From an uncultured Alphaproteobacteria bacterium (GTDB lineage Bacteria > Pseudomonadota > Alphaproteobacteria > Micavibrionales > UBA2020): a stretch of DNA of 64,000 bases. Below the pieces are notes generated by a model that saw only the letters and a program-made list of their open reading frames with translations, had not been told where the DNA came from and made no database searches. Of this stretch, positions 4,320 through 41,337 are shown piece after piece (the stretch's first letter is position 1; every line of letters begins with the position of its first letter). The stretch covers positions 151,079 to 215,078 of the forward strand of contig CBIHNF010000001.1 of the NCBI GenBank assembly GCA_966211335.1, written 5' to 3'. The position numbers were made by a program, and so were the translations under genes.

Positions 4320-7300
4320 TCATCTCGGCATCCAGACCCGGACGAGGGAGAGAAGTTTTTCGACGTCGAGTGGTTTGGCCATGTAATCGTTCGCGCCGGC
4401 ATCAAGGCAGCGCTCCTGGTCGTCCTTCATCGCTTTTGCGGTCAGCATGATGACGGGCAGTTTTTTCAGCTCCGGCATGCGGCGGATTTCGCGGGTGGCG
4501 GTCAGGCCATCCATTTCCGGCATCATGACGTCCATCAGCACAAGGTCAATCGCCTCGCCTTTTTCCTTGAAGGACGTCAGCGCCGTCAGCGCCTCGCGCC
4601 CGTTGCGGGCGATATGGACGATAGCGCCTTCGGGCTCGAGGATATTGGTGAGGGCATAAACGTTGCGGACGTCATCCTCCACCACAAGAATACGGCGGCC
4701 CTGCAGCACTTCGTCGCGGCTGCGCGCCTGTTCCAGCATTTTCTGCTGTGCGGCCGGCAGGTCCGACACGACCTGATGCAGGAAGAGCGTGACTTCATCC
4801 AGCAGCCGCTCCGGCGATTTGGCGCCCTTGATAATGATGGATTTGGAATAGCGGCGCAGGCGATGCTCTTCCTCCGACGACAATTCGCGGCCGGTGTAGA
4901 CGATGACCGGCGGGAAGGAATAGGCGTCTTCACTGCTTAAAGTTTCCAGCAGCGTATAACCTGAGGCATCCGGCAGCGAGAGATCGAGCACCATGCAGTC
5001 GAAAGTTTCGGTTTTCAGTTTTTCAAGGCATTCGCCCGCGGTGCCGACGCCGACGGTCTGCACATCGGCGGTGCCGAGCAGTTTGCCGACGCTGTCGCGC
5101 TGCACGGCGTCATCCTCCACAATCAGGACGCGGCGCATATGCTTGTCGAGGCGGGATTCAAGCTTTTTCAGCACATCGACCAGCTCTTCGCGCTTCACCG
5201 GTTTCAGCATATAGCCGATAGCGCCGAGCTGCAGCGCCTTCTGCGCGTAATCGCCGCCGGAGACGACGTGCACCGGAATGTGCCGCGTGCGCGGGTTGCG
5301 CTTGAGGCGGTCGAGGACGGAGAGGCCGGAGTTATCGGGCAGGCCGACGTCCAGCACCACCGCGCTCGGCAGGTATTGCTTGGCAAGCGCCAGCGCCTCT
5401 TCCGCGGTGTTGGAGATGATGCACTGGAAGTCGAGCTCATGCGCAAGGTCGTAGAGGATGCGGGCAAAGGATTCATCATCCTCGACCACCAGTATGGTGT
5501 GACTCGTGGCGGTCAGCCGTTCGCGGTCGTCTTCCACCCATTTGATTTTATGTTTGCTGTTGCGCGGCGGCACGGGCGCTTCCGGCACGGCGGCGGCGGG
5601 CAGTTCGGGGGCGAGGTTGAACGTCGGCTTCAGCACCGTCTTTTCGTCATAGCTTTCCGGCAGCACGAGCGTGAAGGTCGAGCCTTTGCCGGGTTCGCTC
5701 TCGAGCTCGATGGAGCCGCCGAGCAATCTTGCGAACTCGCGTGAGATGGAAAGGCCAAGGCCGGTGCCGCCGTATTTGCGGCTGATGGTACCGTCCGCCT
5801 GGCGGAAGGCATCGAAAATGGCTTTTTGCTGTTCCTTCGACACGCCAATGCCGGTATCCGTCACTGCCAGCGCAATGCGGCCGTCGTCGCGGCGGCTGAT
5901 GGCGAAAGTGACGCCGCCCTTTTCGGTGAATTTGAAGGCGTTCGAGAGCAGGTTTTTCAAGACCTGCTCCAGCCGCTGGCGGTCGGTGTCGATGGTGTCC
6001 GGCAGCCCCTCGCCCAGCTTGTTGTCGAGGCGGAGACCCTTCTGCTGCGCGATCGGCTCGAAGATGCGGGACATATCGCTGATGAGGCGGGACAGCGGCA
6101 CCGCTTCCGGCCGGATCTCCATATGCCCCGCCTCGATTTTGGAAAGGTCGAGAATGTCGTTGATGAGCGCCAAGAGGTCATTACCCGCCGCCTGAATGGT
6201 GAGGGCGTATTTGACCTGCTCGGCCGTCAGGTTCTTCTCCGGATTGTCGGCCAGCAGTTTGGCGAGGATGAGGGAGGAGTTGAGCGGCGTGCGCAGCTCA
6301 TGGCTCATATTGGCAAGGAAGTCGGACTTATAGCGGCTCGCCTGTTCCAGCTCTTTCGCCTTGAAATCGACAAGGGCTTTCGCGGTCGCGAGATCATCGC
6401 GCTGCACTTCAAGCTGCTGGGTTTGTTCTTCCAGCTGGGAGTTGGTCTGCTCCAGCTCCGCCTGCTGCTGCTCGAGCCGGCTTTGCGAATCCTTCAGCGC
6501 GCGGGATTGTTCTTCCAGCTCCTCGTTGTTGACGCGCAGCTCTTCTGACTGCGCCTGCAGCTCTTCCGCCTGACGCTGCGTTTCTTCGAGGAAGTCCTGC
6601 AGGTTGGCGCGGTAGTTGGCGGAGCGGATGGCGACGCTGACGGTTTCCGAGACATTCGACAACAGCTCGGTCACATAGCTGTCGATGGGGTGGATGAAGC
6701 CAAGCTCGACGACGCCGTTGACGAGGCCTTCGGAGGACGCCGGCGAGATGATTAGATGGCGCGGCTTGCCGCGGCCGAGGCCGGAGCCCGCGGCGATATA
6801 ACCGTCCGGCAGGTCGTTGATGACGATGGTGCGCGCGTCTTTCGCGGCGGCGCCGAGGAGCCCCTGCCCCAGCGCGAAGCCCTGCGGCACGGCGGCATCA
6901 TCCGGCAGGCCGAAGGCGGCGATGCGGCGGTATTCTCCGCCTTCGCGCACGAAGAAGGCGCCGGCATGCGCATCGGCATATTGCGCGATGTATTTCAGCA
7001 CGTTTTCGCCGAGCTGTTCCATGCGCTGGTCGCCCGCCATGACCATGCTGAGGCCAACCTGGCCGGACTGCAGCCATTGCTGCCGCACGCGCGCCATGGA
7101 GTTGCGGCGCACCAGATAGGCCACAACGGCCGAGAGCAGCACACCCAGCAAACAGGTGATGGCGCCGCTGACCAGCGTGGTGCGGTAGGATTCCTGCATT
7201 TCAAGGATGCGCTGCTGGCGAACAACGCTTTCATCCCGCTTCATATCATCGACCGCACCGCGCAGCGCGTCCATATAAGTCTTGCCGCGGTCGGACAGCA

Positions 7301-7787
7301 CAACCGCCATGGCGGCATCGAGCCCTTTATCGCGGCGGAGGTCGATGGTTTCTTTCAGCTCCTGCAGCTTGGCGGCGATATTGCTGCGCAGCGTCGCAAG
7401 GCGTATTTCATGCTCGGGGTTGTCGGCGGTCAGGCGCTCGACATTGCCAATTTGCTCGCCAATGCTGGCAACGGCGTTTTCATAGGGCGCGAGATATTTG
7501 ACATCGCCCGTCAGCACATAGCCGCGCTGCCCTGTTTCGGCGTCTTTCATGTACGACAGCAGATCGCTGACGCTGGCCAGAACCTCATGCGTATGCGCGA
7601 CCGCCTGCTGGCCATCCAGCAATGCTTTCGTATTCGCGTAGGAGAGCACGCCCGAGCCGATGAAGAACAGCACCACGGCCGCAAGCCCGAGGGAGACGAC
7701 GAAGTCCGACTTCATCTGGCGGCTGGCATTGGTAGAGCCGTCTGTCACATAGCCGGATTTTGGGGCGGGGGCGGTTGAGGCGGGCAT
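4320..7787 (-). CDS. CHASE3-TM-GAF-coiled coil hybrid histidine kinase with three C-terminal receiver domains
   Basis: A CHASE3-like periplasmic region (THEVLASVSDLLSYMKDAETGQRGYVLTGDVKYLAPY) is flanked by two hydrophobic helices. It is followed by a GAF-like region, a long heptad coil, the H-box FLANMSHELRTPLNS and the HATPase motifs DTGIGV and GGTGLGLSI. Three REC domains follow (ILVVEDDESFA, VLIVEDDAVQ, ILVVEDDVRN). The start could be the internal Met at codon 25. Confidence 0.9.
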   Translation of the reverse strand: MPASTAPAPKSGYVTDGSTNASRQMKSDFVVSLGLAAVVLFFIGSGVLSYANTKALLDGQQAVAHTHEVLASVSDLLSYMKDAETGQRGYVLTGDVKYLAPYENAVASIGEQIGNVERLTADNPEHEIRLATLRSNIAAKLQELKETIDLRRDKGLDAAMAVVLSDRGKTYMDALRGAVDDMKRDESVVRQQRILEMQESYRTTLVSGAITCLLGVLLSAVVAYLVRRNSMARVRQQWLQSGQVGLSMVMAGDQRMEQLGENVLKYIAQYADAHAGAFFVREGGEYRRIAAFGLPDDAAVPQGFALGQGLLGAAAKDARTIVINDLPDGYIAAGSGLGRGKPRHLIISPASSEGLVNGVVELGFIHPIDSYVTELLSNVSETVSVAIRSANYRANLQDFLEETQRQAEELQAQSEELRVNNEELEEQSRALKDSQSRLEQQQAELEQTNSQLEEQTQQLEVQRDDLATAKALVDFKAKELEQASRYKSDFLANMSHELRTPLNSSLILAKLLADNPEKNLTAEQVKYALTIQAAGNDLLALINDILDLSKIEAGHMEIRPEAVPLSRLISDMSRIFEPIAQQKGLRLDNKLGEGLPDTIDTDRQRLEQVLKNLLSNAFKFTEKGGVTFAISRRDDGRIALAVTDTGIGVSKEQQKAIFDAFRQADGTISRKYGGTGLGLSISREFARLLGGSIELESEPGKGSTFTLVLPESYDEKTVLKPTFNLAPELPAAAVPEAPVPPRNSKHKIKWVEDDRERLTATSHTILVVEDDESFARILYDLAHELDFQCIISNTAEEALALAKQYLPSAVVLDVGLPDNSGLSVLDRLKRNPRTRHIPVHVVSGGDYAQKALQLGAIGYMLKPVKREELVDVLKKLESRLDKHMRRVLIVEDDAVQRDSVGKLLGTADVQTVGVGTAGECLEKLKTETFDCMVLDLSLPDASGYTLLETLSSEDAYSFPPVIVYTGRELSSEEEHRLRRYSKSIIIKGAKSPERLLDEVTLFLHQVVSDLPAAQQKMLEQARSRDEVLQGRRILVVEDDVRNVYALTNILEPEGAIVHIARNGREALTALTSFKEKGEAIDLVLMDVMMPEMDGLTATREIRRMPELKKLPVIMLTAKAMKDDQERCLDAGANDYMAKPLDVEKLLSLVRVWMPR

Positions 7788-8122
7788 GGCGGCATTCCAT
7801 TCAATACGTTACGGCGAAAGCAGGCCGCCCGCGGAAATTCCGCCGGCGTTCTGTCGGGGCAGCAATGGCAGGAAGAAGCCAAATCTAAAGGTCGCAAAGC
7901 CGGTTTGGAGTAAACCCCTTAGCCGGTACGCCCTGATGGTTGAAAAAGCCGCCCCCCAAGATAGGCATGTTAAGGTCTTCATCCAGCTAAAACAACAACT
8001 TAAACCTGCACGAGCCGCCGCAGTGAATGTACGCACGGGGTTAAAAAAAGTTCCCGGCCCCCCGCGGCGTTATTTACATACCGGAGCATGGCGAGGGCGG
8101 ACTTGACTCCCGCCCCCGATAA

Positions 8123-9446: not shown

Positions 9447-9957
9447 GCTGGCCTATCCAGCTGTGCTCCGGGCTTTCAATCCTCAACGCCGTGCGCAGCC
9501 ATTCCCTTGCAGCGTCATCAAGGCAGGGGAGTGCCGTCGCAAAATCCTGCGCATCGATATCGCGCATATGTTTTGATTTATAAAGCAGCGCTATTTCCAG
9601 CGGCAGCGCCCCGCCCGATGCCGCAAACCTGCTGCGCGGCAGGCGGATGGCGCGATTGCGGCGATAAACCCAGTCATCGCCGTCAAATTCGTTCAGCAGA
9701 ACTTCCAGCGTGTTGCCGTCTTCGAAATGGCAGTATATTTCATGCACCGGCAATTCGAGCCGCTCGCCCTGCCACAGATGCGGCGTGCTTTTTGCCATGT
9801 ATTCGATTTTCAAAAGCTGCGGCATCTGAAGCAGAAACCGCTGGTCATCCCGCGCCAGCGCAATCTCGACATCTTTATGCGCCCTAGTCTGCCGCCCCAC
9901 CGCCATATCAACAGCCCAGCCGCCCGCGATCCAGTAGGGCGCGGGAAACACTTTCAT
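9436..9957 (-). CDS. Nucleotidyltransferase of the aminoglycoside-2''-adenylyltransferase (AadB-like) family
   Basis: YWIAGGWAVDMAVGRQTRAHKDVEIAL aligns by eye with the WIGGGWAIDARLGRVTRKHDDIDL active-site region of ANT(2'')-Ia. Its 3' end overlaps the polymerase 3' end by 11 nt (convergent). Confidence 0.6.
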   Translation of the reverse strand: MKVFPAPYWIAGGWAVDMAVGRQTRAHKDVEIALARDDQRFLLQMPQLLKIEYMAKSTPHLWQGERLELPVHEIYCHFEDGNTLEVLLNEFDGDDWVYRRNRAIRLPRSRFAASGGALPLEIALLYKSKHMRDIDAQDFATALPCLDDAAREWLRTALRIESPEHSWIGQLTP

Positions 9958-33294: not shown

Positions 33295-34164
33295 ATGCAA
33301 GCAGCTCAACCGATGGTTACGCCCGATGTGCCCAATCACGTGACGCAGCACAAGCATCACGTTGAACTGTCGGCGACGATGGTGAAGGCGAAGCTGGGCG
33401 CGCGGCAGCCGAAAATCGCCATCATCCTCGGCTCCGGCCTTGGCGGGCTTGGCGACAAGGTGACGGATGCAGTCAAGATTTCCTATACCGAGCTGCCGGG
33501 TTTCCCCACCCTTACCATTCCCGGCCATAACGGCGAATTGATTGCGGGGAAATTAAACGGCGTCGAGGTCATCGCCCTCAAAGGCCGCAAGCATTTTTAC
33601 GAGACGGAAGACCCCTACCCGCTGAAAACCATGATCCGCACATTAAAAGCCGTGGGTGTTGATACGCTGTTCGTCTCGAATGCAGCCGGCAGCCTGCGCG
33701 CCGATATTGGCGTGTCCGAACTCATGATGATCACCGACCATATCAACTACATGGGCTTCAACCCGCTGGTCGGCGCGAATGACGAGAATTTCGGCCCCCG
33801 TTTTGTGCCGCTGACGGATGCCTGGGACGCAGACCTCCGCGCCAAGCTGAAAACCGCTGCAAAGAAAATCAACATTCCGCTGCATGAAGGCGTCTACATC
33901 GCCTTCCGCGGCCCGACGTTTGAAACCCCCGCCGAAATCCGCATGGCGAAAACCATGGGCGCCGATGCCGTCGGCATGTCGAGCGTGCCGGACTGCATTA
34001 TCGCGCGGCACTGTGGTATGCGCGTTGTGGGTTGTTCCTGCATCACAAATATGGGCGCAGGCTTGTCGGATGAAAAAATCAGCCATGCGCATACGTTGGA
34101 AAACGCTGGCCGGGGTGCTGCGAATTTTGAAAAGCTGGTGCAGGAGTTTGTGACGCTGCTATGA
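33295..34164 (+). CDS. Purine nucleoside phosphorylase (trimeric PNP/PunA type)
   Basis: AIILGSGLGGL...LPGFPTLTIPGHNGELIAGKL...GRKHFYE...VSNAAGSL...GPRF...FRGPTFETPAEIRM...GADAVGMS are canonical PNP-family motifs. Confidence 0.9.
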   Translation: MQAAQPMVTPDVPNHVTQHKHHVELSATMVKAKLGARQPKIAIILGSGLGGLGDKVTDAVKISYTELPGFPTLTIPGHNGELIAGKLNGVEVIALKGRKHFYETEDPYPLKTMIRTLKAVGVDTLFVSNAAGSLRADIGVSELMMITDHINYMGFNPLVGANDENFGPRFVPLTDAWDADLRAKLKTAAKKINIPLHEGVYIAFRGPTFETPAEIRMAKTMGADAVGMSSVPDCIIARHCGMRVVGCSCITNMGAGLSDEKISHAHTLENAGRGAANFEKLVQEFVTLL

Positions 34165-34907
34165 AGTGCATCGACCTGCCATCGCCGAACTTTAATGACC
34201 GTCGCGAAGGCACGTCGCTGGATTACATCGTCATCCATTACACCAGCATGGATTCCACGAAAGCCGCGCTTGACCGGCTGACCGACCCGAAGTCGGAGGT
34301 CAGCGCCCATTACCTGATTGACGAAAAAGGCAATATCTACACGCTGGTGGATGAGGAAAAACGCGCCTGGCACGCCGGCATTTCCAGCTGGATGGGGAAG
34401 GATGATTTGAATTCCCGCTCCATCGGCATTGAAATGTCGAACCGCGACAACCAGCCCTATACGAATGAGCAGCTTTTCTCGCTCGCGCTGCTGTGCAAGG
34501 ACATCATGTTCCGCCGCGGGATTGCGCCGGAAAATATTTTGGGCCATTCCGATATTGCGCCAGACCGCAAACAGGACCCCGGCTACCACTTCCCTTGGGC
34601 AAAAATGGCGCGGCACGATATTGGCCGCTGGCCGAAGCCGACTATTAAAGACAAATTCAACGCCGCCGCCGTCGCGCGCAGCCCGCGCCAGCTGAAAGAA
34701 CTGTTCAAGGCGGCCGGCTATGGCGTGGAAGCGCATGGCAAGAACAAGCCCGCGCTGAAAGACATCATCAACGCCTTCCAGCAGCGGTATGAGCCGGAAT
34801 TGTTCAAGGACCCGACGGCGACGCCCGGCAAGGCGACGGCCGATACGGTCGCGAAACTCCGCGCCCTCGCCCGCATCAACCAGAACCCCGCTAAAAAACC
34901 CAAATGA
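34161..34907 (+). CDS. N-acetylmuramoyl-L-alanine amidase (AmpD/AmiD-like Amidase_2) with a C-terminal peptidoglycan-binding-like repeat
   Basis: PSPNFNDRR...IVIHYTSM...SAHYLIDEKG...AWHAGIS.W...NSRSIGIE...GHSDIAPDRKQDPG, followed by a C-terminal LKELFKAAGYGV...INAFQQRYEP. Confidence 0.85.
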   Translation: MKCIDLPSPNFNDRREGTSLDYIVIHYTSMDSTKAALDRLTDPKSEVSAHYLIDEKGNIYTLVDEEKRAWHAGISSWMGKDDLNSRSIGIEMSNRDNQPYTNEQLFSLALLCKDIMFRRGIAPENILGHSDIAPDRKQDPGYHFPWAKMARHDIGRWPKPTIKDKFNAAAVARSPRQLKELFKAAGYGVEAHGKNKPALKDIINAFQQRYEPELFKDPTATPGKATADTVAKLRALARINQNPAKKPK

Positions 34908-35641
34908 TTATTACGGATGCGCCATCCCCCAATTTCGGGCCGCGCGCGCATGGCAAAACACCGAGCCTGCTGATTTTGCATTACACCGATACGGCAACCG
35001 CCTTTGACGCGCTGCAGATTTTGCAGTCGCCGGAACGTCAGGTGTCATCTCACTATCTTGTCGATGAGCAGGGCATGGTGATGCGATTGGTGCCGGAGGA
35101 GATGCGCGCCTGGCATGCCGGCAAATCATGGTGGCAGGGAGAGGAAGATATCAATTCCACCTCCATCGGCATCGAGATTCAAAATCCGGGCCACGGTTTT
35201 GGCTATGTGCCTTTTCCGGAGGTGCAGATGGCGGCGGTGGCAAACCTCTGCCGCGATATCATCGCGCGCCATAAAATTCTGCCCTACCATGTGCTGGCGC
35301 ATTCCGATATTGCGCCGGAGCGGAAAAAGGACCCCGGCGAACTTTTCCCGTGGATGTCACTGGCCAACCAGAAAATCGGTTTGTGGCCGGAGCCGACCGA
35401 TACTGAAAAGCTGGATGCCGAGGAAACACCCGCGACGGAGGAAGACATCAAATCCCTCCTCACCCGCTACGGCTATGATCCGCGCCTTGATGCCAAAACC
35501 CTTATCACCGCCTTCCAGCGCCACTTCGAGCCGGAGGCGTTCTGGGATGACGAAAAGGTCGGCCTCATCACCGCCCGCACGGTATACCGCGCCAAAGCCC
35601 TTGTGCGTCAAAGGCTTGCGCTGCGACCGAAGGCGCTTTAA
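34904..35641 (+). CDS. N-acetylmuramoyl-L-alanine amidase (AmpD/AmiD-like), tandem paralog
   Basis: It has the same motif series: PSPNFGPR, LILHYTDT, SSHYLVDEQG, AWHAGKSWW, NSTSIGIE, AHSDIAPERKKDPG and ITAFQRHFEP. There is a 4-nt overlap with the upstream copy. Confidence 0.85.
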   Translation: MIITDAPSPNFGPRAHGKTPSLLILHYTDTATAFDALQILQSPERQVSSHYLVDEQGMVMRLVPEEMRAWHAGKSWWQGEEDINSTSIGIEIQNPGHGFGYVPFPEVQMAAVANLCRDIIARHKILPYHVLAHSDIAPERKKDPGELFPWMSLANQKIGLWPEPTDTEKLDAEETPATEEDIKSLLTRYGYDPRLDAKTLITAFQRHFEPEAFWDDEKVGLITARTVYRAKALVRQRLALRPKAL

Positions 35642-35692
35642 GTATTCATAATCACCTTGACGGGCTGCCCTTGCGGGTCTACTCTGCCACGA

Positions 35693-36080
35693 AACCAGAG
35701 GGCCGGATGACCGCGGTAGCGATATCGAGGAAAGTCCGGGCTCCATGAGAATCCGGTGCCGGATAACGTCCGGCGAAGGTGACTTCAGGGAAAGTGCCAC
35801 AGAGAACATACCGCCAACCGTCCCTTCGGGGTCGCGGCAAGGGTGAAAAGGTGCGGTAAGAGCGCACCGCGGTCTTGGTAACAAGACTGGCATGGAAAAC
35901 CCCACCGGGAGCAAGACCAAATAGGGAGAGCACGTAACGGCTTCGGCCGCGACAGGGCCCGTTTTTCAGCCCCGCTTTCCGGGTTGGTTGCTAGAGGCTG
36001 CAAGTAATTGCAGTTCGAGATGAATGGTCATCCGTGCCCGCAAGGGCGCGACAAAACCCGGCTTACAGGCCCTCTGGTTT
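35693..36080 (+). ncRNA. rnpB: RNase P RNA, bacterial type A
   Basis: GAGGAAAGTCCGGGCTCC lies at about 35727-35744, with GGGTGAAAAGGTGCGGTAAGAGCGCACC and ACAAAACCCGGCTTACAG. The terminal P1 pairing is CCAGAGGGCC...GGCCCTCTGG, followed by a T-run. All ORFs listed across this interval are spurious. Confidence 0.93.
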
Positions 36081-36112
36081 ATTTTTTTTGAGTTGATTGA
36101 AGGATACGCATC

Positions 36113-37408
36113 ATGAGCTATGACACCGTCGAAGGCATCCATTACATTTTTGACCGCTATGCGTTCATCAATCAAATCATGGCGGACGGCGGCTTTCCGG
36201 TGCGGATTTCTGAAAGCTCCGACAAGGCGGAAATTTCCAAGGCCTTCGGCCATGCGCGCGGCATGTACCACCCCGACCGCCAGGCCCGTACGGGGGAGGA
36301 AATGCGCAAGAAGGCCGAACAGAAAACCCTGCTGATTGGCGATTGCGAGCGCTTCCTCAACAACCCCGAGCTGAAAAGTTTTTACGACGCCAAGCTGGCC
36401 GAATTCCGCGAGAATACGCCGCATCTTGTCAGCAAGGACGGCACGGCGATGATTGATTTGTCGCGCACCTTCTTCGATATTTCGGCGCTGCTGTCGGACA
36501 AAGTCGTCGATACCTCCGGCTTCGAGGCGCAGGTGAAATCCATGCTGCAGTACGATGAATCGCGCGTTGAGCAGGCGAAAAGCCTGTTCGATATGCTGCC
36601 CGATAACCCGAAGGTGCAGGGCGTTTACCGCGACGCGCTGACGCAGAAGTATGTTTACCTGACGTTGCTTGAAGATTCCGCTTGGGCGAAAGTCGGCTAC
36701 ATGAACCGCAAGGAAAAAGAAGAAGGCTTCCTGGCCTCGCCGAAGGACTACACCAAGCGCATTGAAGCCGCGCTGCAAAAATCTGCCGCGCGCGATATTG
36801 AATCGACCGTCGAGCGCAACGGGGAAATTGCACGCCTCGGCATGGCGCGGACGCCGCTGATGCTGGATGCCGTTGAAGGTACCATGCCGACCGCCGTGAA
36901 CGAACAGACCGCGCCCGAGCAATACGAAGGCCTGATGGTGAAGTTCAAGGAAGTCGCCCGCAAGAACTTTGAAATTCGCGCCGAATATGTGCGCGATGTG
37001 GCAAAGCAAAAGCAGGAAGTGCTGGAAACCCTTTGCACCCTCTCGCCGACGGAAGAGCTGATGACGCCGGACCTCGCCAAAGACACCGTGGTTGATTTCA
37101 TTCTGCTCAACCCGCCGGAAGACGGGCAGCAGAAGGCGCTGTTCCGCATGTTCCTCGATACCGCGACCGGCAATGCCGGCATCGCCGAAACCTATAAGGG
37201 CGAAACCCTGGCGGATATCAAAACCGCGGGCGTGCCGCGCGGCACCTTCGCCATCACCCGCAACCCCGAGATCAGCGATATCATGGTGGAAGCCGGCGCG
37301 GCGGCGGAGCGCTACCTTGATAAAGTCGAGGCGGCGAAACCCAAAGCCGAGCAGACACCCAAGCAGAAGATTCGCAAGCCGAAAGCGCCGAAGGCTCCCG
37401 GCCAATAA
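36113..37408 (+). CDS. Orphan J-domain-containing protein (431 aa) with an uncharacterised C-terminal region
   Basis: SSDKAEISKAFGHARGMYHPDRQ...MRKKAEQKTLLIGDCERFLNNPELKSFYD fits J-domain helix II, the HPD loop (nt 36269-36277) and helices III-IV. There is no G/F region and no zinc finger. It ends KIRKPKAPKAPGQ. The 518-aa antisense ORF is R/G/L-rich and was rejected. Confidence 0.7.
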   Translation: MSYDTVEGIHYIFDRYAFINQIMADGGFPVRISESSDKAEISKAFGHARGMYHPDRQARTGEEMRKKAEQKTLLIGDCERFLNNPELKSFYDAKLAEFRENTPHLVSKDGTAMIDLSRTFFDISALLSDKVVDTSGFEAQVKSMLQYDESRVEQAKSLFDMLPDNPKVQGVYRDALTQKYVYLTLLEDSAWAKVGYMNRKEKEEGFLASPKDYTKRIEAALQKSAARDIESTVERNGEIARLGMARTPLMLDAVEGTMPTAVNEQTAPEQYEGLMVKFKEVARKNFEIRAEYVRDVAKQKQEVLETLCTLSPTEELMTPDLAKDTVVDFILLNPPEDGQQKALFRMFLDTATGNAGIAETYKGETLADIKTAGVPRGTFAITRNPEISDIMVEAGAAAERYLDKVEAAKPKAEQTPKQKIRKPKAPKAPGQ

Positions 37409-37453
37409 TCTGGAAAACGAATTCAGCTTTTTTTCTAATATGTTAATCGTTGA

Positions 37454-37482
37454 TTGACATAGTAGTCCTGCTTTCGTAGGGT
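37454..37482 (+). promoter_or_regulatory. Sigma70-like promoter candidate (TTGACA-17-TAGGGT) ahead of the paralog array
   Basis: TTGACA at 37454-37459, a 17-nt spacer and TAGGGT at 37477-37482, within the 112-nt AT-richer gap between the J-domain gene and paralog 1. Confidence 0.35.
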
Positions 37483-37520
37483 GCCGCTGTCCCAAAATTG
37501 CTGCGATTTGAAGGTGCTCC

Positions 37521-37886
37521 ATGGCTGAAGTTTACGCTGCCCTCAATCCTTATACGCTGCGCGTTGTCGAAGAGGAAAAACGCACCCTCGACAATTACGG
37601 CTCGCAGTATATGACGCATCTTTCTTCCATCACCCGCACGTTCAATTTTCTGGCGGCGCAGGTGGAGACGGTGACGCGCGACCTGCTGTACCAGTCGCAC
37701 GGGTCGGAGCGCGGCGGTGCAGCCTCCGTCGCCACCCTGAGCCGCGTCGAAGGCTTCGACGAGCTGCCGAGTACGGCGGAAGTGCGCTACATGCACGAAA
37801 AACTGAAATCCCTCGGCGGTACGCCGCCCGCGCTGGAAGAAACCCTTGGCGGTTTCAAGAAGCAGCTAAAGCCGGTCGGGCCGTAA
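37521..37886 (+). CDS. Small protein, paralog 1 of a five-member tandem family
   Basis: Family motifs: LNPYTLRV; TRTFNFLAAQVETV; GFDELPSTAEVRYMHEKLKSLGGTPPALEE; tail KKQLKPVGP. It is closest to paralog 4. Confidence 0.7.
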   Translation: MAEVYAALNPYTLRVVEEEKRTLDNYGSQYMTHLSSITRTFNFLAAQVETVTRDLLYQSHGSERGGAASVATLSRVEGFDELPSTAEVRYMHEKLKSLGGTPPALEETLGGFKKQLKPVGP

Positions 37887-37890
37887 CGCC

Positions 37891-38241
37891 ATGGTCGTCA
37901 GCGAAGACTTCTACAAAATCAACGATCACAGCATTGCCCAGCGCACCAACCAGCGCGTCTGGGATGATGCCAACTGGACGCGCGATTCCACGCTCTGCCG
38001 TGAATTCAACTTCCAGTCCCGTCAGGTGACGGTGACGAACGAGGCCATGGTGTGGAAGAAAGCGGGTAACGAGCCTGCGGTCGGCACCAGCACTTTCGTT
38101 CAGAATTTCAGCGATATCGAGGGCCGCGGCGAGATTGAGCGCGCCCATGCGAAGCTCATCGAACTCGGCGGCGCACCGCCCGCGCTCGAGGATATTTTCG
38201 GCGCCGGTAAAAAGCCCGCCCGCCTGCCAACCGCGGATTGA
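37891..38241 (+). CDS. Small protein, paralog 2 of a five-member tandem family
   Basis: Family motifs: INDHSIAQ; CREFNFQSRQVTVT; NFSDIEGRGEIERAHAKLIELGGAPPALED; tail GKKPARLPTAD. It starts 4 nt after the paralog 1 stop. Confidence 0.7.
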   Translation: MVVSEDFYKINDHSIAQRTNQRVWDDANWTRDSTLCREFNFQSRQVTVTNEAMVWKKAGNEPAVGTSTFVQNFSDIEGRGEIERAHAKLIELGGAPPALEDIFGAGKKPARLPTAD

Positions 38242-38245
38242 ACAT

Positions 38246-38620
38246 ATGCCCCCCATCTTCAGAAAGATTGACGAATACACGCTGCAGGCCATTACGCCGC
38301 TGGGGGAGAAAGACGAGTGGGGTAACGCGCGCATCCGCCGCATTTTCAATTTTCAGGCGCGCGACGTGACGACGCTGTACGAGCGCGGCGGCAAGGTGGA
38401 CTATAAAATTCCCGGCCATAGCAACTATGTTGAGAAAGCCGCCGCTGCCATGGCGGTCACCAGCAGCATGACCCAGCGCAGCTTCAGCGATTTCGACAGC
38501 ATGGAGGAAATCATCGCCATGCACGCCAAGCTCAAGTCACTCGGCGGCACGCCGCCCGCTATCGACGATCTGGTCAACACGCTGCCGAAAAAACCAGCGA
38601 AACTGACGCCGCCCCAGTAG
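38246..38620 (+). CDS. Small protein, paralog 3 of a five-member tandem family
   Basis: Family motifs: IDEYTLQA; RRIFNFQARDVTTL; SFSDFDSMEEIIAMHAKLKSLGGTPPAIDD; tail PKKPAKLTPPQ. The start is at the ATG at 38246, 4 nt after the paralog 2 stop. The listed 38135 start would overlap paralog 2. Confidence 0.7.
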   Translation: MPPIFRKIDEYTLQAITPLGEKDEWGNARIRRIFNFQARDVTTLYERGGKVDYKIPGHSNYVEKAAAAMAVTSSMTQRSFSDFDSMEEIIAMHAKLKSLGGTPPAIDDLVNTLPKKPAKLTPPQ

Positions 38621-38641
38621 AAATTCAGTAAAGGAAACATC

Positions 38642-39010
38642 ATGCAGGAAGAATTCAACCGCGTCGGCGATTACACACTCCGTATCGATTTCCGCCGCAA
38701 TGATATTGAACGCGGCGGCGTGCAGAAATGCGACGGCTATACGAAGCTGTTCAACTTCCTGTCCCGTCAGGTGACGACGATCCACCGCGACTGGCTGTCG
38801 GAAGGCCGCGGCAGCAGCGCCGGGGGCAATTCCGCCGTCGCCGCCTCGACCACGATTGAAAGTTTCGACTCCCTGCCGTCGGATGCGGAAGTAAAATACA
38901 TGCATGCAAAACTCGTCACCCTTGGCGGCACGCCGCCCGAGCTGGAAGATGTCTTGCCGAAAACGCCGGCGAAACTGCCCGCCGCGCTGCGCCCCGCCAA
39001 TCAGGGTTAA
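38642..39010 (+). CDS. Small protein, paralog 4 of a five-member tandem family
   Basis: Family motifs: VGDYTLRI; TKLFNFLSRQVTTI; SFDSLPSDAEVKYMHAKLVTLGGTPPELED; tail PKTPAKLPAALRP. The RBS is AAAGGAAA. Confidence 0.7.
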   Translation: MQEEFNRVGDYTLRIDFRRNDIERGGVQKCDGYTKLFNFLSRQVTTIHRDWLSEGRGSSAGGNSAVAASTTIESFDSLPSDAEVKYMHAKLVTLGGTPPELEDVLPKTPAKLPAALRPANQG

Positions 39011-39034
39011 GATATTTTACGTAAGGTTAAAGCC

Positions 39035-39352
39035 ATGTCCGATGAAAATACCGAAACCTTTGAAAAGCTGAACGATTATACGCTGTCAGTGCGCACCAAT
39101 TTTTCCCATCAGCCGGAGAGCGACCCGACGCTGCGGCGTATTTTTAACTTCCGTGCGTGCCAAGTGACGGAGATTTACAGCGTCTGGTACAGCGAAGCTG
39201 TCAGCACCACGATGCTGCAAACCCGCTTCAGCGACCTCGACAGCCAGGACGAGGCGGAGCTGCTGCGGGACAAGCTGCGCAGCATGGGCGGCCGCCCGCC
39301 GGAAAGCGCACCGCCGCGCACCCTACCCGGCAAAAATTCTCTCCATCCCTAA
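39035..39352 (+). CDS. Small protein, paralog 5 (most divergent) of a five-member tandem family
   Basis: Family motifs: LNDYTLSV; RRIFNFRACQVTEI; RFSDLDSQDEAELLRDKLRSMGGRPPES. Confidence 0.65.
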   Translation: MSDENTETFEKLNDYTLSVRTNFSHQPESDPTLRRIFNFRACQVTEIYSVWYSEAVSTTMLQTRFSDLDSQDEAELLRDKLRSMGGRPPESAPPRTLPGKNSLHP

Positions 39353-39367
39353 ACCCCCGCGCTGCAC

Positions 39368-39396
39368 AAAAAAGCCTTATTTAATCAGGCCTTTTT
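39368..39396 (+). terminator. Weak hairpin plus T-run after the paralog array
   Basis: AAAAAAGCCT-tatttaatc-AGGCCTTTTT forms a short bulged stem followed by a T-run. Confidence 0.3.
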
Positions 39397-39409
39397 GCAC
39401 ATCTACGCG

Positions 39410-39438
39410 TTGACGCATTTTTAGCGCCGCGATACATT
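39410..39438 (+). promoter_or_regulatory. Sigma70-like promoter candidate for the dcw cluster (TTGACG-17-TACATT)
   Basis: TTGACG at 39410-39415, a 17-nt spacer and TACATT at 39433-39438, directly upstream of rsmH. Confidence 0.45.
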
Positions 39439-39452
39439 GAAAGCAGCGTTGA

Positions 39453-40562
39453 ATGTCGCAGGGTTTTCCACTTTTGGGGGTGTGGCCTGCCGTTCGGCAA
39501 AAAATAAAAAACTTGGAGTTTCCGGGGCATCGTTCCCCGGGAGCCGTCATCGGGGTTGCACTGCAGTTGAAGAAGACGTCACCGTCAAAAGTCGCCGCCA
39601 CAAGCGGAACGACCGGTCATATTCCGGTCATGCTGGCCGAGGTGCTTGAAACCCTCAGCCCCCGCGACGGGGGCGTGTATGTGGACGGCACCTTCGGCGC
39701 GGGCGGCTATACCCGCGCGATACTCGAGGCCGCCGACTGCACCGTCTACGCGATCGACCGCGACCCCGCCGCCATCGAGCGCGCGAAACCCTTTCAAAAA
39801 CAATACGGCGACAAGCTTCAAATGCTGCACGGTTGCTTCGGCGATGCGGAAAACCTGCTGGCGGCGGCGGGCGTAGAGAGCATCGACGGCTTCGTTCTTG
39901 ACCTTGGCGTCTCCTCCATCCAGCTGGAAACGCCGGAGCGCGGCTTTTCCTTCCAGTCGGATGGACCCTTGGACATGCGCATGAGCCTTGCCGGCCTCAG
40001 CGCCCGCGATGTCGTCAACAAGGCGGCGGAAAAAGACCTTGCCGATATACTGTTCACCTATGGCGAAGAACGCGCCAGCCGCGCGATTGCCAAAAAAATC
40101 GTCGCCGCCCGCGCGTTGAGCCCCATAGAGACGACGCTGCAGCTCGTCGATGTCATCCACAGCGTGCTGCCGATGCACGGCGGCCTTAAAACCGATACCG
40201 CGACCCGGACCTTTCAGGCGCTCCGCATCTACGTCAATGACGAGCTGGGGGAGCTGGAGCGGGCGCTGGACGCCGCCGAAAATCTGCTGGCGATCGACGG
40301 ACGCCTCGTCGTCGTCTCCTTCCACTCGCTGGAAGACTGGCGCGTGAAAAACTTCTTCCGCGAAAAATCGGGGCGCGAACCCAATGCTTCCCGCCACCTG
40401 CCGCAGCGGCCCGATGCGCCGGTGCCGAGCTTCCGCATGGAAGCGAACAACGGCGTGAAGCCGTCGCAGGAAGAGATTTCAAGAAACGCGCGCTCGCGTT
40501 CGGCGCACCTGCGCTACGGCATTCGCACTTCGGCACCTGTCATGGAGGCGCGGCATGCGTAA
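39453..40562 (+). CDS. rsmH: 16S rRNA (cytosine1402-N4)-methyltransferase RsmH (MraW)
   Basis: HIPVMLAEVLETL...GVYVDGTFGAGGYTRAIL...DLGVSSIQLE...RGFSF..DGPLDMRM...SFHSLEDWRVK are canonical. The true start is probably internal, since conserved sequence begins about 55 codons in. Confidence 0.92.
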   Translation: MSQGFPLLGVWPAVRQKIKNLEFPGHRSPGAVIGVALQLKKTSPSKVAATSGTTGHIPVMLAEVLETLSPRDGGVYVDGTFGAGGYTRAILEAADCTVYAIDRDPAAIERAKPFQKQYGDKLQMLHGCFGDAENLLAAAGVESIDGFVLDLGVSSIQLETPERGFSFQSDGPLDMRMSLAGLSARDVVNKAAEKDLADILFTYGEERASRAIAKKIVAARALSPIETTLQLVDVIHSVLPMHGGLKTDTATRTFQALRIYVNDELGELERALDAAENLLAIDGRLVVVSFHSLEDWRVKNFFREKSGREPNASRHLPQRPDAPVPSFRMEANNGVKPSQEEISRNARSRSAHLRYGIRTSAPVMEARHA

Positions 40563-41337
40563 GACGACCCTGCTCTGGCTGTTCTTGGCCGCGATCTGCG
40601 GCGGCATGCTGTTCCACACCAGCCAGCAGGTGACGGACGGCCGCACAAAACTCGCCTCCATAGAAGCCGCAACGCAGAAGGAAGATGAATCCCTGCGCGT
40701 CCTGCAGGCGGAATGGAGCTACCTGAACCAGCCCGACCGGCTGGAAAAACTCTCGAAGCAGTATCTCGACCTTGCACCCTTAAAGGGCAAGCAGTTCGCC
40801 AAGGTCGCCGACCTTGAAGCAAAACCGGCCAGCGCGAAAGCAGATGACGTCGCCGCCCCCGTGATTGCCGATGAAGGGAATGGCACCGCAACGCTGCCCG
40901 TACCGGATGAAAAAGTGGATATCGCAAAAACGGAAGTCGCGAAAACAGAGAATACAAAACCCGCGCCCGCCAAACCGGAACTGGCCCTGACCCCCGTAGT
41001 GCCCGCAAAACCGCTGCCGCTGAAAATTGAAAAAGCCTCCGGCGATGAACTTGTCTCGCCGCTGAAAGCGCAAGCGAAACCGGCCACGCCGAAAACCGCG
41101 ACAGCTTCTGCCGCCTCCGTTGCCCATGCGCCTTTGCGCGGCTATGTCTATTCACCGCCAAAGCCGGCGGCCCTGCGCGGCGGCGTTTATCACCCGCCCG
41201 CAAAACCCGCGGCTGGAAAAGTATCGCCGGTTTATAACTACAAAGCCCCCAGCTACCCCACCCTTCAGGGCGCGACCGGCGGCCAGCGCGACTTCGGCGA
41301 TGTGATCAAAAGCCTTGGCGGGAGCCCCCACCCATGA
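40555..41337 (+). CDS. ftsL: Cell division protein FtsL-like, with a long Pro/Ala/Lys-rich C-terminal extension
   Basis: It occupies the position between rsmH and ftsI. An N-terminal TM helix (LLWLFLAAICGGMLF) is followed by a coiled-coil (LRVLQAEWSYLNQPDRLEKLSKQYLDL), as in alphaproteobacterial FtsL. About 170 further residues of low-complexity PAKP-type sequence follow. Confidence 0.75.
   Translation: MRKTTLLWLFLAAICGGMLFHTSQQVTDGRTKLASIEAATQKEDESLRVLQAEWSYLNQPDRLEKLSKQYLDLAPLKGKQFAKVADLEAKPASAKADDVAAPVIADEGNGTATLPVPDEKVDIAKTEVAKTENTKPAPAKPELALTPVVPAKPLPLKIEKASGDELVSPLKAQAKPATPKTATASAASVAHAPLRGYVYSPPKPAALRGGVYHPPAKPAAGKVSPVYNYKAPSYPTLQGATGGQRDFGDVIKSLGGSPHP

Follow-up and report, generated by a model that had tools for sequence, protein, structure and literature searches.

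Tandem sets of paralogous genes that build one structure include the Reb proteins of R-bodies, the gas-vesicle proteins GvpA/J/M, the shell proteins of microcompartments and the bactofilins, and genes for the subunits of a single complex often sit together in tightly coupled operons. At the division and cell wall (dcw) cluster, the usual first gene is mraZ, whose product has a fold of AbrB-type repeats and works as a ring of many repeated domains. HscB hands IscU to HscA by way of an exposed LPPVK motif of IscU. Here we analyze five tandem small open reading frames (ORFs) at positions 37521-39352 of a 64,000-nucleotide stretch of DNA (the window) from an uncultured alphaproteobacterium of the Micavibrionales (GCA_966211335.1, contig CBIHNF010000001.1, positions 151,079 to 215,078). 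The array lies between a J-domain protein gene and the head of the dcw cluster. By sequence search, it encodes an undescribed small-protein family restricted to Micavibrio-like predatory Alphaproteobacteria; the family is new at both the family and the fold level, and no membership test for a known family places the paralogs. Our best guess, to which we assign a probability of roughly 0.35, is that the paralogs are translated together as subunits of a single mixed oligomer, helped in one clade by the J protein as an accessory chaperone. The locus resembles the tandem sets named above in its small paralogous genes, tight operon, kept order and specialized copies; it differs from them in having no sequence or fold relation to any, and the likeness is one of analogy only.

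The five ORFs share the forward strand at 37521-37886 (paralog 1, 121 amino acids), 37891-38241 (paralog 2, 116), 38246-38620 (paralog 3, 124), 38642-39010 (paralog 4, 122) and 39035-39352 (paralog 5, 105), with gaps of 4, 4, 21 and 24 nt, and an ORF listing reproduced the lengths and spacing originally reported for them. Each matches the family hidden Markov model (HMM; E=2e-38, 8e-33, 2e-37, 4e-42 and 6e-34 for paralogs 1 to 5, respectively). The three motif blocks first read in the translations, namely an N-terminal YTL block, a central FNF block and a C-terminal block followed by a Lys/Pro tail, also stand out in a five-way alignment, which contains 13 invariant columns (FNF, V, V, F, E, KL, GG and PP); paralog 2 is the sole copy that lacks YTL. 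Identity across the ten paralog pairs ranges from 31 to 44%, with paralogs 1 and 4, already singled out as nearest neighbors, at the top, and BLASTP E values between paralogs run from 1e-9 to 5e-29 in a database of these five proteins only. At the DNA level alignment persists in the motif regions only, and the duplications are therefore old. Paralog 3 is basic, with an isoelectric point (pI) of ~9, and carries a long conserved YERGG...P loop, and paralog 5, the shortest copy, has a short loop and an acidic N-terminus.

The start codon of paralog 3 could be assigned with the help of orthologues. The longest frame of paralog 3 in the mechanical ORF list opens at a TTG at 38135, and the ATG at 38246 is the start common to its orthologues, whose N-termini (MPPIFRK, MPPSFKK, MPTFKK) match it. 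Shine-Dalgarno-like sequences precede paralogs 1, 4 and 5. The starts of paralogs 2 and 3 fall 4 nt past the preceding stop codon, a spacing that suggests both are translationally coupled to the copy before them.

The five ORFs are real genes under purifying selection that is looser than on the adjoining genes, as indicated by homologues elsewhere, their substitution ratios and a base composition like that of their neighbors. Their GC content at third codon positions is 0.73-0.79, in line with adjoining genes and native in composition. Against the nearest relative (locus L006), the ratio of nonsynonymous to synonymous substitution rates (dN/dS) is 0.25, 0.17, 0.19 and 0.27 for paralogs 1, 3, 4 and 5, and 0.085 for the J protein; amino-acid identity to the same relative is 71-74% for the small family versus 91% for the J protein. 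Paralog 2 is absent from that genome, and its only clear orthologue, the second copy of locus L001 (L001_2), is 46% identical, with a dN/dS of 0.33. Paralog 2 is thus the fastest-evolving copy, and paralog 5, which had been taken for the most diverged, is merely the shortest. Long antisense ORFs do overlie the array, such as the one at 37855-38349 on the reverse strand, and the L001 gene caller picked an antisense ORF over the fifth copy, as might be expected if the sense frames were chance or non-functional products of GC-rich DNA, or if the antisense ORFs were the true genes. That explanation is effectively refuted by more than 200 homologues of the sense-strand proteins with conserved motifs, by purifying selection on the sense frame, by a confident AlphaFold2 fold and by conserved gene order. 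In the genome that holds L001 (Micavibrio sp. metagenome-assembled genome [MAG] GCA_028283745), at 9538-9861 the public call for the fifth paralog is on the antisense strand, and this copy is consequently missing from the annotation.

The profile searches proposed with the original prediction were run, and none reached a characterized family, leaving the claim of novelty unrefuted. No match at E<=1 beyond noise was found for the five paralogs in Pfam, NCBIfam, PHROGs or PADLOC (every PHROGs match had E>=0.06, and PADLOC gave none), and 121 aligned members compared with Pfam at E<=10 yielded no recurring family. In sequence profile searches of the PDB, ubiquitin alone was matched, locally and without significance (E=0.075 and 0.83). 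A word-indexed search of 5.8 billion proteins retrieved about 140 relatives, all unnamed or labeled "hypothetical protein"; where a source is named, it is a MAG of Micavibrio sp. or Alphaproteobacteria or, once, one labeled Bdellovibrionales. An exhaustive HMMER scan of 1.84 billion cluster representatives gave no more than 205 matches at E<=1e-3, those with a name being hypothetical proteins of Micavibrio-like MAGs, and a second, more divergent profile (A5) reached no named family in the 5.8 billion proteins or the PDB. Searches of IMG/VR contigs, phage records and plasmid records yielded no relatives; with these results, those from PHROGs and PADLOC and the native composition, cargo of a phage, plasmid or defense island was rejected. 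One member (P0095) bears the JGI label SeqA, "negative regulator of replication initiation", and this label looks spurious: hhalign against an E. coli SeqA sequence gave a probability of 1.2%.

A survey of related genomes, as had been suggested, found the array in ~15 of them, with one to seven copies. In every locus with enough flanking DNA, it sits between rnpB and rsmH-ftsL-ftsI. Proximity to the core dcw cluster had been called unusual; adjacency to rsmH is in fact the most constant property of the family. Five copies are present in the window, L001 and L022; four in L004, L006, L009 and L025; six in L007, L008, L011 and L029; and three in L012, L013 and L030. At the extremes, L014 has a single copy (5977-6309), and L027 has seven in tandem (4867-7466 of a 496-kb metagenome contig); both arrays lie between amidase genes and rsmH. 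Gaps between copies are mostly -4 to +10 nt, very tight or overlapping. Since the array is found in relatives, it is not a recent selfish duplication, the outcome that would have counted against the original prediction.

We built a neighbor-joining tree from 48 copies taken from 11 loci, and found that copies group by array position rather than by genome. First copies form group A (including those of L006, L001, L009, L007, L011 and L012), and the order A, (A'/B/F), C, D, E, with B/F as the middle group, is kept across genomes; paralogs 1 to 5 of the window belong to orthogroups A to E, respectively. Group C has the long YERGG...P loop and a pI of ~9, with orthologues of like loop signature in 10 loci. 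Group E is short, has an acidic N-terminus and is always last, being the last copy of nine loci and the lone copy of L014. By this phylogeny the copies represent at least five old orthogroups rather than recent or diversifying duplicates.

The apparently hypervariable middle of the proteins corresponds to the beta4-beta5 loop of one folded domain. It does differ between paralogs, as originally described, but it is not hypervariable within an orthogroup: loop length is fixed inside each orthogroup, loop identity is 53% within versus 12% between orthogroups, and its conservation equals that of the strands. This bears on the proposal of a diversifying family of the adaptor, immunity or effector type; such proteins might, for instance, be cargo directed at prey and addressed by the conserved C-terminal module and the basic tail. 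Effectors often contain ankyrin repeats, and the family domain both ends ankyrin-repeat proteins and adjoins ankyrin genes; the family is, moreover, confined to predatory bacteria and evolves faster than its neighbors, as the identities to L006 given above illustrate. Set against these points are a dN/dS below 0.3, orthogroups that keep their order, and the lack of a signal peptide, an adjacent toxin gene or a PADLOC match, while the Lys/Pro-rich tails look like a lineage-wide compositional habit. M. aeruginosavorus is also reported to lack type III and type IV secretion systems (PMC3189940). Nor does the locus look like a polymorphic toxin-immunity array or an array of orphan immunity genes, its neighbors being rnpB, the J protein gene and rsmH, its order kept, its dN/dS 0.17-0.33 and its loop conserved within orthogroups. 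We therefore do not retain the diversifying pattern seen in the original prediction, and consider the effector proposal very unlikely.

Domain fusions bear on the use of the family domain. In P0277, P0296 and P0298, ankyrin repeats are followed by a C-terminal family domain; P0310 has a C-terminal family domain after an N-terminal region with only a weak DUF7426 match; and P0307 carries two family domains in one chain. These architectures suggest that the domain is a protein-protein interaction module able to work in pairs. One stand-alone member adjoins ankyrin genes outside the dcw context (loci L017 and L019 were noted with the fusions), and in L001 an ankyrin gene lies 5 kb upstream of the array. 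Ankyrin genes as constant neighbors were considered and dismissed, as their occurrence is sporadic (L001 and L019 only). The fusions and ankyrin neighbors are the sole architectural clues to function.

We predicted the structure of paralog 4 with AlphaFold2 and 121 homologues, obtaining a model with a mean predicted local distance difference test score (pLDDT) of 81.9 and a predicted template modeling (TM) score (pTM) of 0.67. It contains antiparallel strands at residues 2-7, 12-21, 27-38, 43-54 and 64-74, a helix at 82-93 and a short one at 101-104, and its tail falls to a pLDDT of ~52-55. Each protein is accordingly predicted to fold as a single compact domain, in which a beta-meander of five antiparallel strands is followed by an amphipathic helix at the C-terminal side, a conserved GGxP turn and a short Lys/Pro tail that is disordered. 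The conserved positions map onto this model as follows: T12 and L13 to strand 2; F37-N38-F39 and the RQVTT segment to the beta3-beta4 hairpin; F75 directly past strand 5; E83, M87 and L91 within the helix; and G96, P98 and P99 directly past it. We found no hydrophobic stretch in the five sequences long enough for a signal peptide or membrane helix, and the N-termini are polar; lacking both features, the five proteins are presumably cytoplasmic.

The paralog 4 model had no match in the PDB or BFVD at E<=1e-3 by Foldseek. Its best neighbors, at 8-14% identity, were CapZ alpha/beta (E ~1e-2, TM score 0.46 or lower) and levivirus coat proteins. The CapZ alpha/beta core and the levivirus (PP7, MS2-type) coats share with the model an antiparallel beta-meander that bears a C-terminal helix on one face; this is a likeness of fold class only, and such weak matches are no evidence of homology or common function. 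Together with the sequence searches, this outcome upholds the statement that the ORFs contain no recognized domain. Ubiquitin-like beta-grasp proteins show a local resemblance, a helix followed by G-x-P-P (EVxxMHAKLxELGGxPPALE in the family). We rejected a ubiquitin-like identity, as the local match was not significant (E values as above) and the predicted topology of five strands and then a helix is not that of a beta-grasp.

CapZ alpha/beta and levivirus coat proteins dimerize edge-to-edge by joining sheets, which offers a model for the mixed assembly that we favor. The paralogs would be made together through translational coupling as subunits of one assembly, and would pair by the edges of their beta-sheets, in the manner of CapZ alpha/beta or levivirus coat dimers. 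Every paralog would supply its own beta4-beta5 loop, and a surface for interactions common to all would be made up of the conserved beta3-beta4 hairpin (FNFxxRQVTT) together with the GGxP turn and tail at the C-terminus. In the clade of the window, the unit also encodes a dedicated J-domain co-chaperone, which probably brings in DnaK for assembly or remodeling of the complex. The gaps of -4 to +10 nt, the two-domain chain P0307, the ankyrin fusions, the old orthogroups in the same order, the constant place between rnpB and rsmH and the 12 nt between J gene and array in L004 are all consistent with such an assembly. Several observations weigh against it. Copy number ranges from one in L014 to seven in L027, so a fixed five-subunit stoichiometry is not essential. 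The matches of the predicted fold are not significant (best E ~1e-2, TM score <=0.46). In the distant, low-GC lineage of L022, the five copies cluster mainly together; part of the amplification may be independent and lineage-specific there, or the signal saturated. The J gene is non-adjacent in about half of the genomes, and is present in M. aeruginosavorus ARL-13, where mraZ and no array is found at the dcw locus. Finally, the dcw cluster has its own conserved promoter, so that co-regulation with the division genes is not supported.

The J gene occupies 36113-37408 on the forward strand, and encodes a protein of 431 amino acids with an HPD motif at residues 53-55, in which H53 and D55 are invariant and P54 nearly so among 46 homologues. 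The Pfam DnaJ match is weak (E=1.2e-4, 22.5 bits, under the gathering score of 27.8). In an AlphaFold2 model (pLDDT 88, pTM 0.80), residues ~30-100 superpose on J domains and HscB (Foldseek probability 0.99-1.0, TM score by target 0.58-0.86); the protein also has a helical region specific to the lineage and, at its C-terminus, a small beta region. Given the modeled fold and the HPD motif, we identify the product as a J-domain protein. The remaining ~330 residues had no PDB match by Foldseek. All 51 homologues of the protein come from Micavibrio-like sources. The C-terminal beta-plus-helix region was examined as a possible member of the small family, and rejected at an hhalign probability of 0.2%.

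The original prediction asked whether the array is always next to this gene; it is not, adjacency being optional and seen in only part of the genomes. In the window, L001, L004, L006 and the L012/L013/L030 type, the J gene separates rnpB from the array. In L007, L008, L011, L014, L025, L027 and L029 it does not adjoin the array, and none was called beside that of L022. A MAG of M. aeruginosavorus has the J gene by itself, flanked by prfA and ispG; the same lone gene in ARL-13 (GMV_1430, 1254 nt) is expressed at a low level in both phases (PMC3189940 supplementary file 4). Within the window, the J gene ATG lies 31 nt past the 3' end of rnpB, which has the same orientation; nothing resembling a terminator intervenes, and the J gene and array may be transcribed by read-through from rnpB. 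L001 has an extra gene between the J gene and the array, encoding a predicted membrane protein of 149 amino acids (7526-7975).

By analogy with HscB and IscU, the paralogs could serve the J protein and DnaK as dedicated clients or adaptors, with the conserved, exposed GGxP(P) turn or the tail as the site where Hsp70 or the J protein docks. As in that system, a J protein with a non-DnaJ C-terminal domain is found beside small alpha+beta proteins with an exposed invariant proline motif; in the loci where it directly precedes the array, the gap is as short as 12 nt (from the J gene to the first copy in L004). The J protein retains an intact HPD motif and a recognizable J fold, with HscB among its best Foldseek neighbors. 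G96, P98 and P99, all of them invariant or almost invariant, follow the helix in a region where the pLDDT falls. The chief weakness of the client reading is that J linkage is optional, as the non-adjacent loci and L022 show, and GMV_1430 stands alone in ARL-13, which has no array at its dcw locus. The motif is weakened to GGxPG or GGxPE in distant members. Moreover, the family is not IscU-like in sequence or predicted fold, and there is no Hsp70 gene in the locus or nearby. We hold this alternative to be possible and doubtful.

On its other side, the array abuts the dcw genes. Paralog 5 is followed by rsmH (mraW; 39453-40562, forward strand; Pfam Methyltransf_5 E=3e-98 from ORF residue 55), the first dcw gene, and then by an FtsL-like gene, ftsI and mur/fts genes up to ftsZ. 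A promoter scan found a sigma-70-like promoter on the forward strand at 39410-39438 (TTGACG, 17 nt, TACATT). Across the window, L006, L001, L004 and L014, TTGACG does not vary and the second hexamer hardly does. In these five genomes a conserved leader of ~130 nt follows (promoter and leader fall within 39353-39620 of the window), which contains GGGGTTGAATGATGCAGGG ... GGGGTGTGGCCTGCC ... TTTGACAAAAA and could be a regulatory RNA or an operator. From this conserved promoter-like element between the last copy and rsmH, we conclude that the dcw genes have their own predicted promoter, and that the array forms a unit of its own upstream, which includes the J gene in the loci that have it there. 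We found no clear intrinsic terminator between array and rsmH. The only candidate, missed by the terminator scan, is a weak hairpin with a T-run at 39367-39397 on the forward strand (-8.1 kcal/mol, z = -1.05, not significant), possibly a leaky end of the array transcript. No CtrA boxes (TTAA-N7-TTAA) or DnaA boxes were present in 35600-39700. Orthologue alignments of RsmH begin at residues 42-56; the frame opened by the ATG at 39453 is probably too long, and translation more likely starts near the in-frame TTG at 39567, inside a conserved stretch.

The placement of the array directly 5' of rsmH at the dcw head corresponds to that of mraZ, and the family shares with MraZ this slot and the character of a small cytoplasmic protein; it differs in having no sequence relation and a different predicted fold. 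A tblastn search with the L022 MraZ found no mraZ in the 64-kb window. In L022, the array is followed by an MraZ gene matching PF02381 and then by rsmH, so the MraZ test works in this lineage. Since array and mraZ coexist there, with the array 5' of mraZ, the two are not alternatives, and mraZ has been lost in the lineage of the window. Comparison of the family profile with an E. coli MraZ sequence by hhalign gave a probability of 0.13%, and no Pfam or NCBIfam match appeared at E<=1. The idea of an MraZ homologue or simple replacement was rejected on the missing profile match, the 0.1% hhalign probability and the coexistence in L022. In the published gene table of M. aeruginosavorus ARL-13 (PMC3189940 supplementary file 4), the dcw locus lacks the array and runs from an amidase gene by way of three tiny ORFs to mraZ (GMV_1909) and mraW.

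These observations also frame the possibility that the paralogs regulate division or wall synthesis through dcw transcription or the divisome, perhaps taking on part of the role of the missing MraZ. The array is always directly 5' of rsmH-ftsL-ftsI, and the window lacks mraZ while ARL-13 has mraZ in that slot and lacks the array. The coexistence of both in L022, the hhalign result and a predicted fold unlike AbrB-type repeats argue the other way, as does the conserved promoter that the dcw cluster keeps for itself. In addition, the proteins are mostly acidic to neutral, with tails too poor in basic residues for a DNA binder, and the constant position could be mere inherited synteny. We regard a regulatory role of this kind as rather unlikely.

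Obligate epibiotic predators such as Micavibrio must hold replication and division off until they have fastened onto prey. A family that is lineage-specific, long held at the dcw head, present as several specialized copies and in some genomes encoded in one unit with its own J-domain co-chaperone is a candidate for prey-linked control of division, although its constant position could be no more than inherited gene order; it is the genomic position alone that hints at a role in tying growth or division to the predatory cycle. In its boldest form, the proposal of a mixed assembly would be a cytoplasmic hetero-oligomeric machine of three to seven paralogs with an unseen fold, assembled or remodeled by J protein and DnaK in one clade, that gates growth and division through the dcw genes according to attack or attachment phase; this we judge improbable. 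The family points to a new protein fold and perhaps to a new multi-paralog complex, which is rare in bacteria. A conserved multi-paralog array in the mraZ neighborhood is notable for specialists in predatory bacteria or cell division, if not yet compelling.

The wider neighborhood is also partly conserved. The full-length RNase P RNA gene rnpB (35695-36081, forward strand; Rfam RF00010, 312.6 bits) is the constant upstream boundary, lying 5' of the array in L004, L007, L008, L011, L012 and L014 as well. In the window it is preceded by sdhB, a PNP_UDP_1 phosphorylase gene and two overlapping Amidase_2 genes (N-acetylmuramoyl-L-alanine amidases; 34161-35641), a tandem pair with a 4-nt overlap and no obvious signal peptide. 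The pair also occurs 5' of rnpB in L001, L004 and L014, and a single copy is found in L022 and ARL-13. Downstream of rsmH, the FtsL-like protein (40555-41337) is unusually long at 260 amino acids, with a Lys/Pro/Ala-rich C-terminal extension and no Pfam match; in more distant relatives only the first ~90 residues are conserved. Lys/Pro-rich tails are likewise present on the J protein and the L001 membrane protein, and look like a compositional habit of the lineage.

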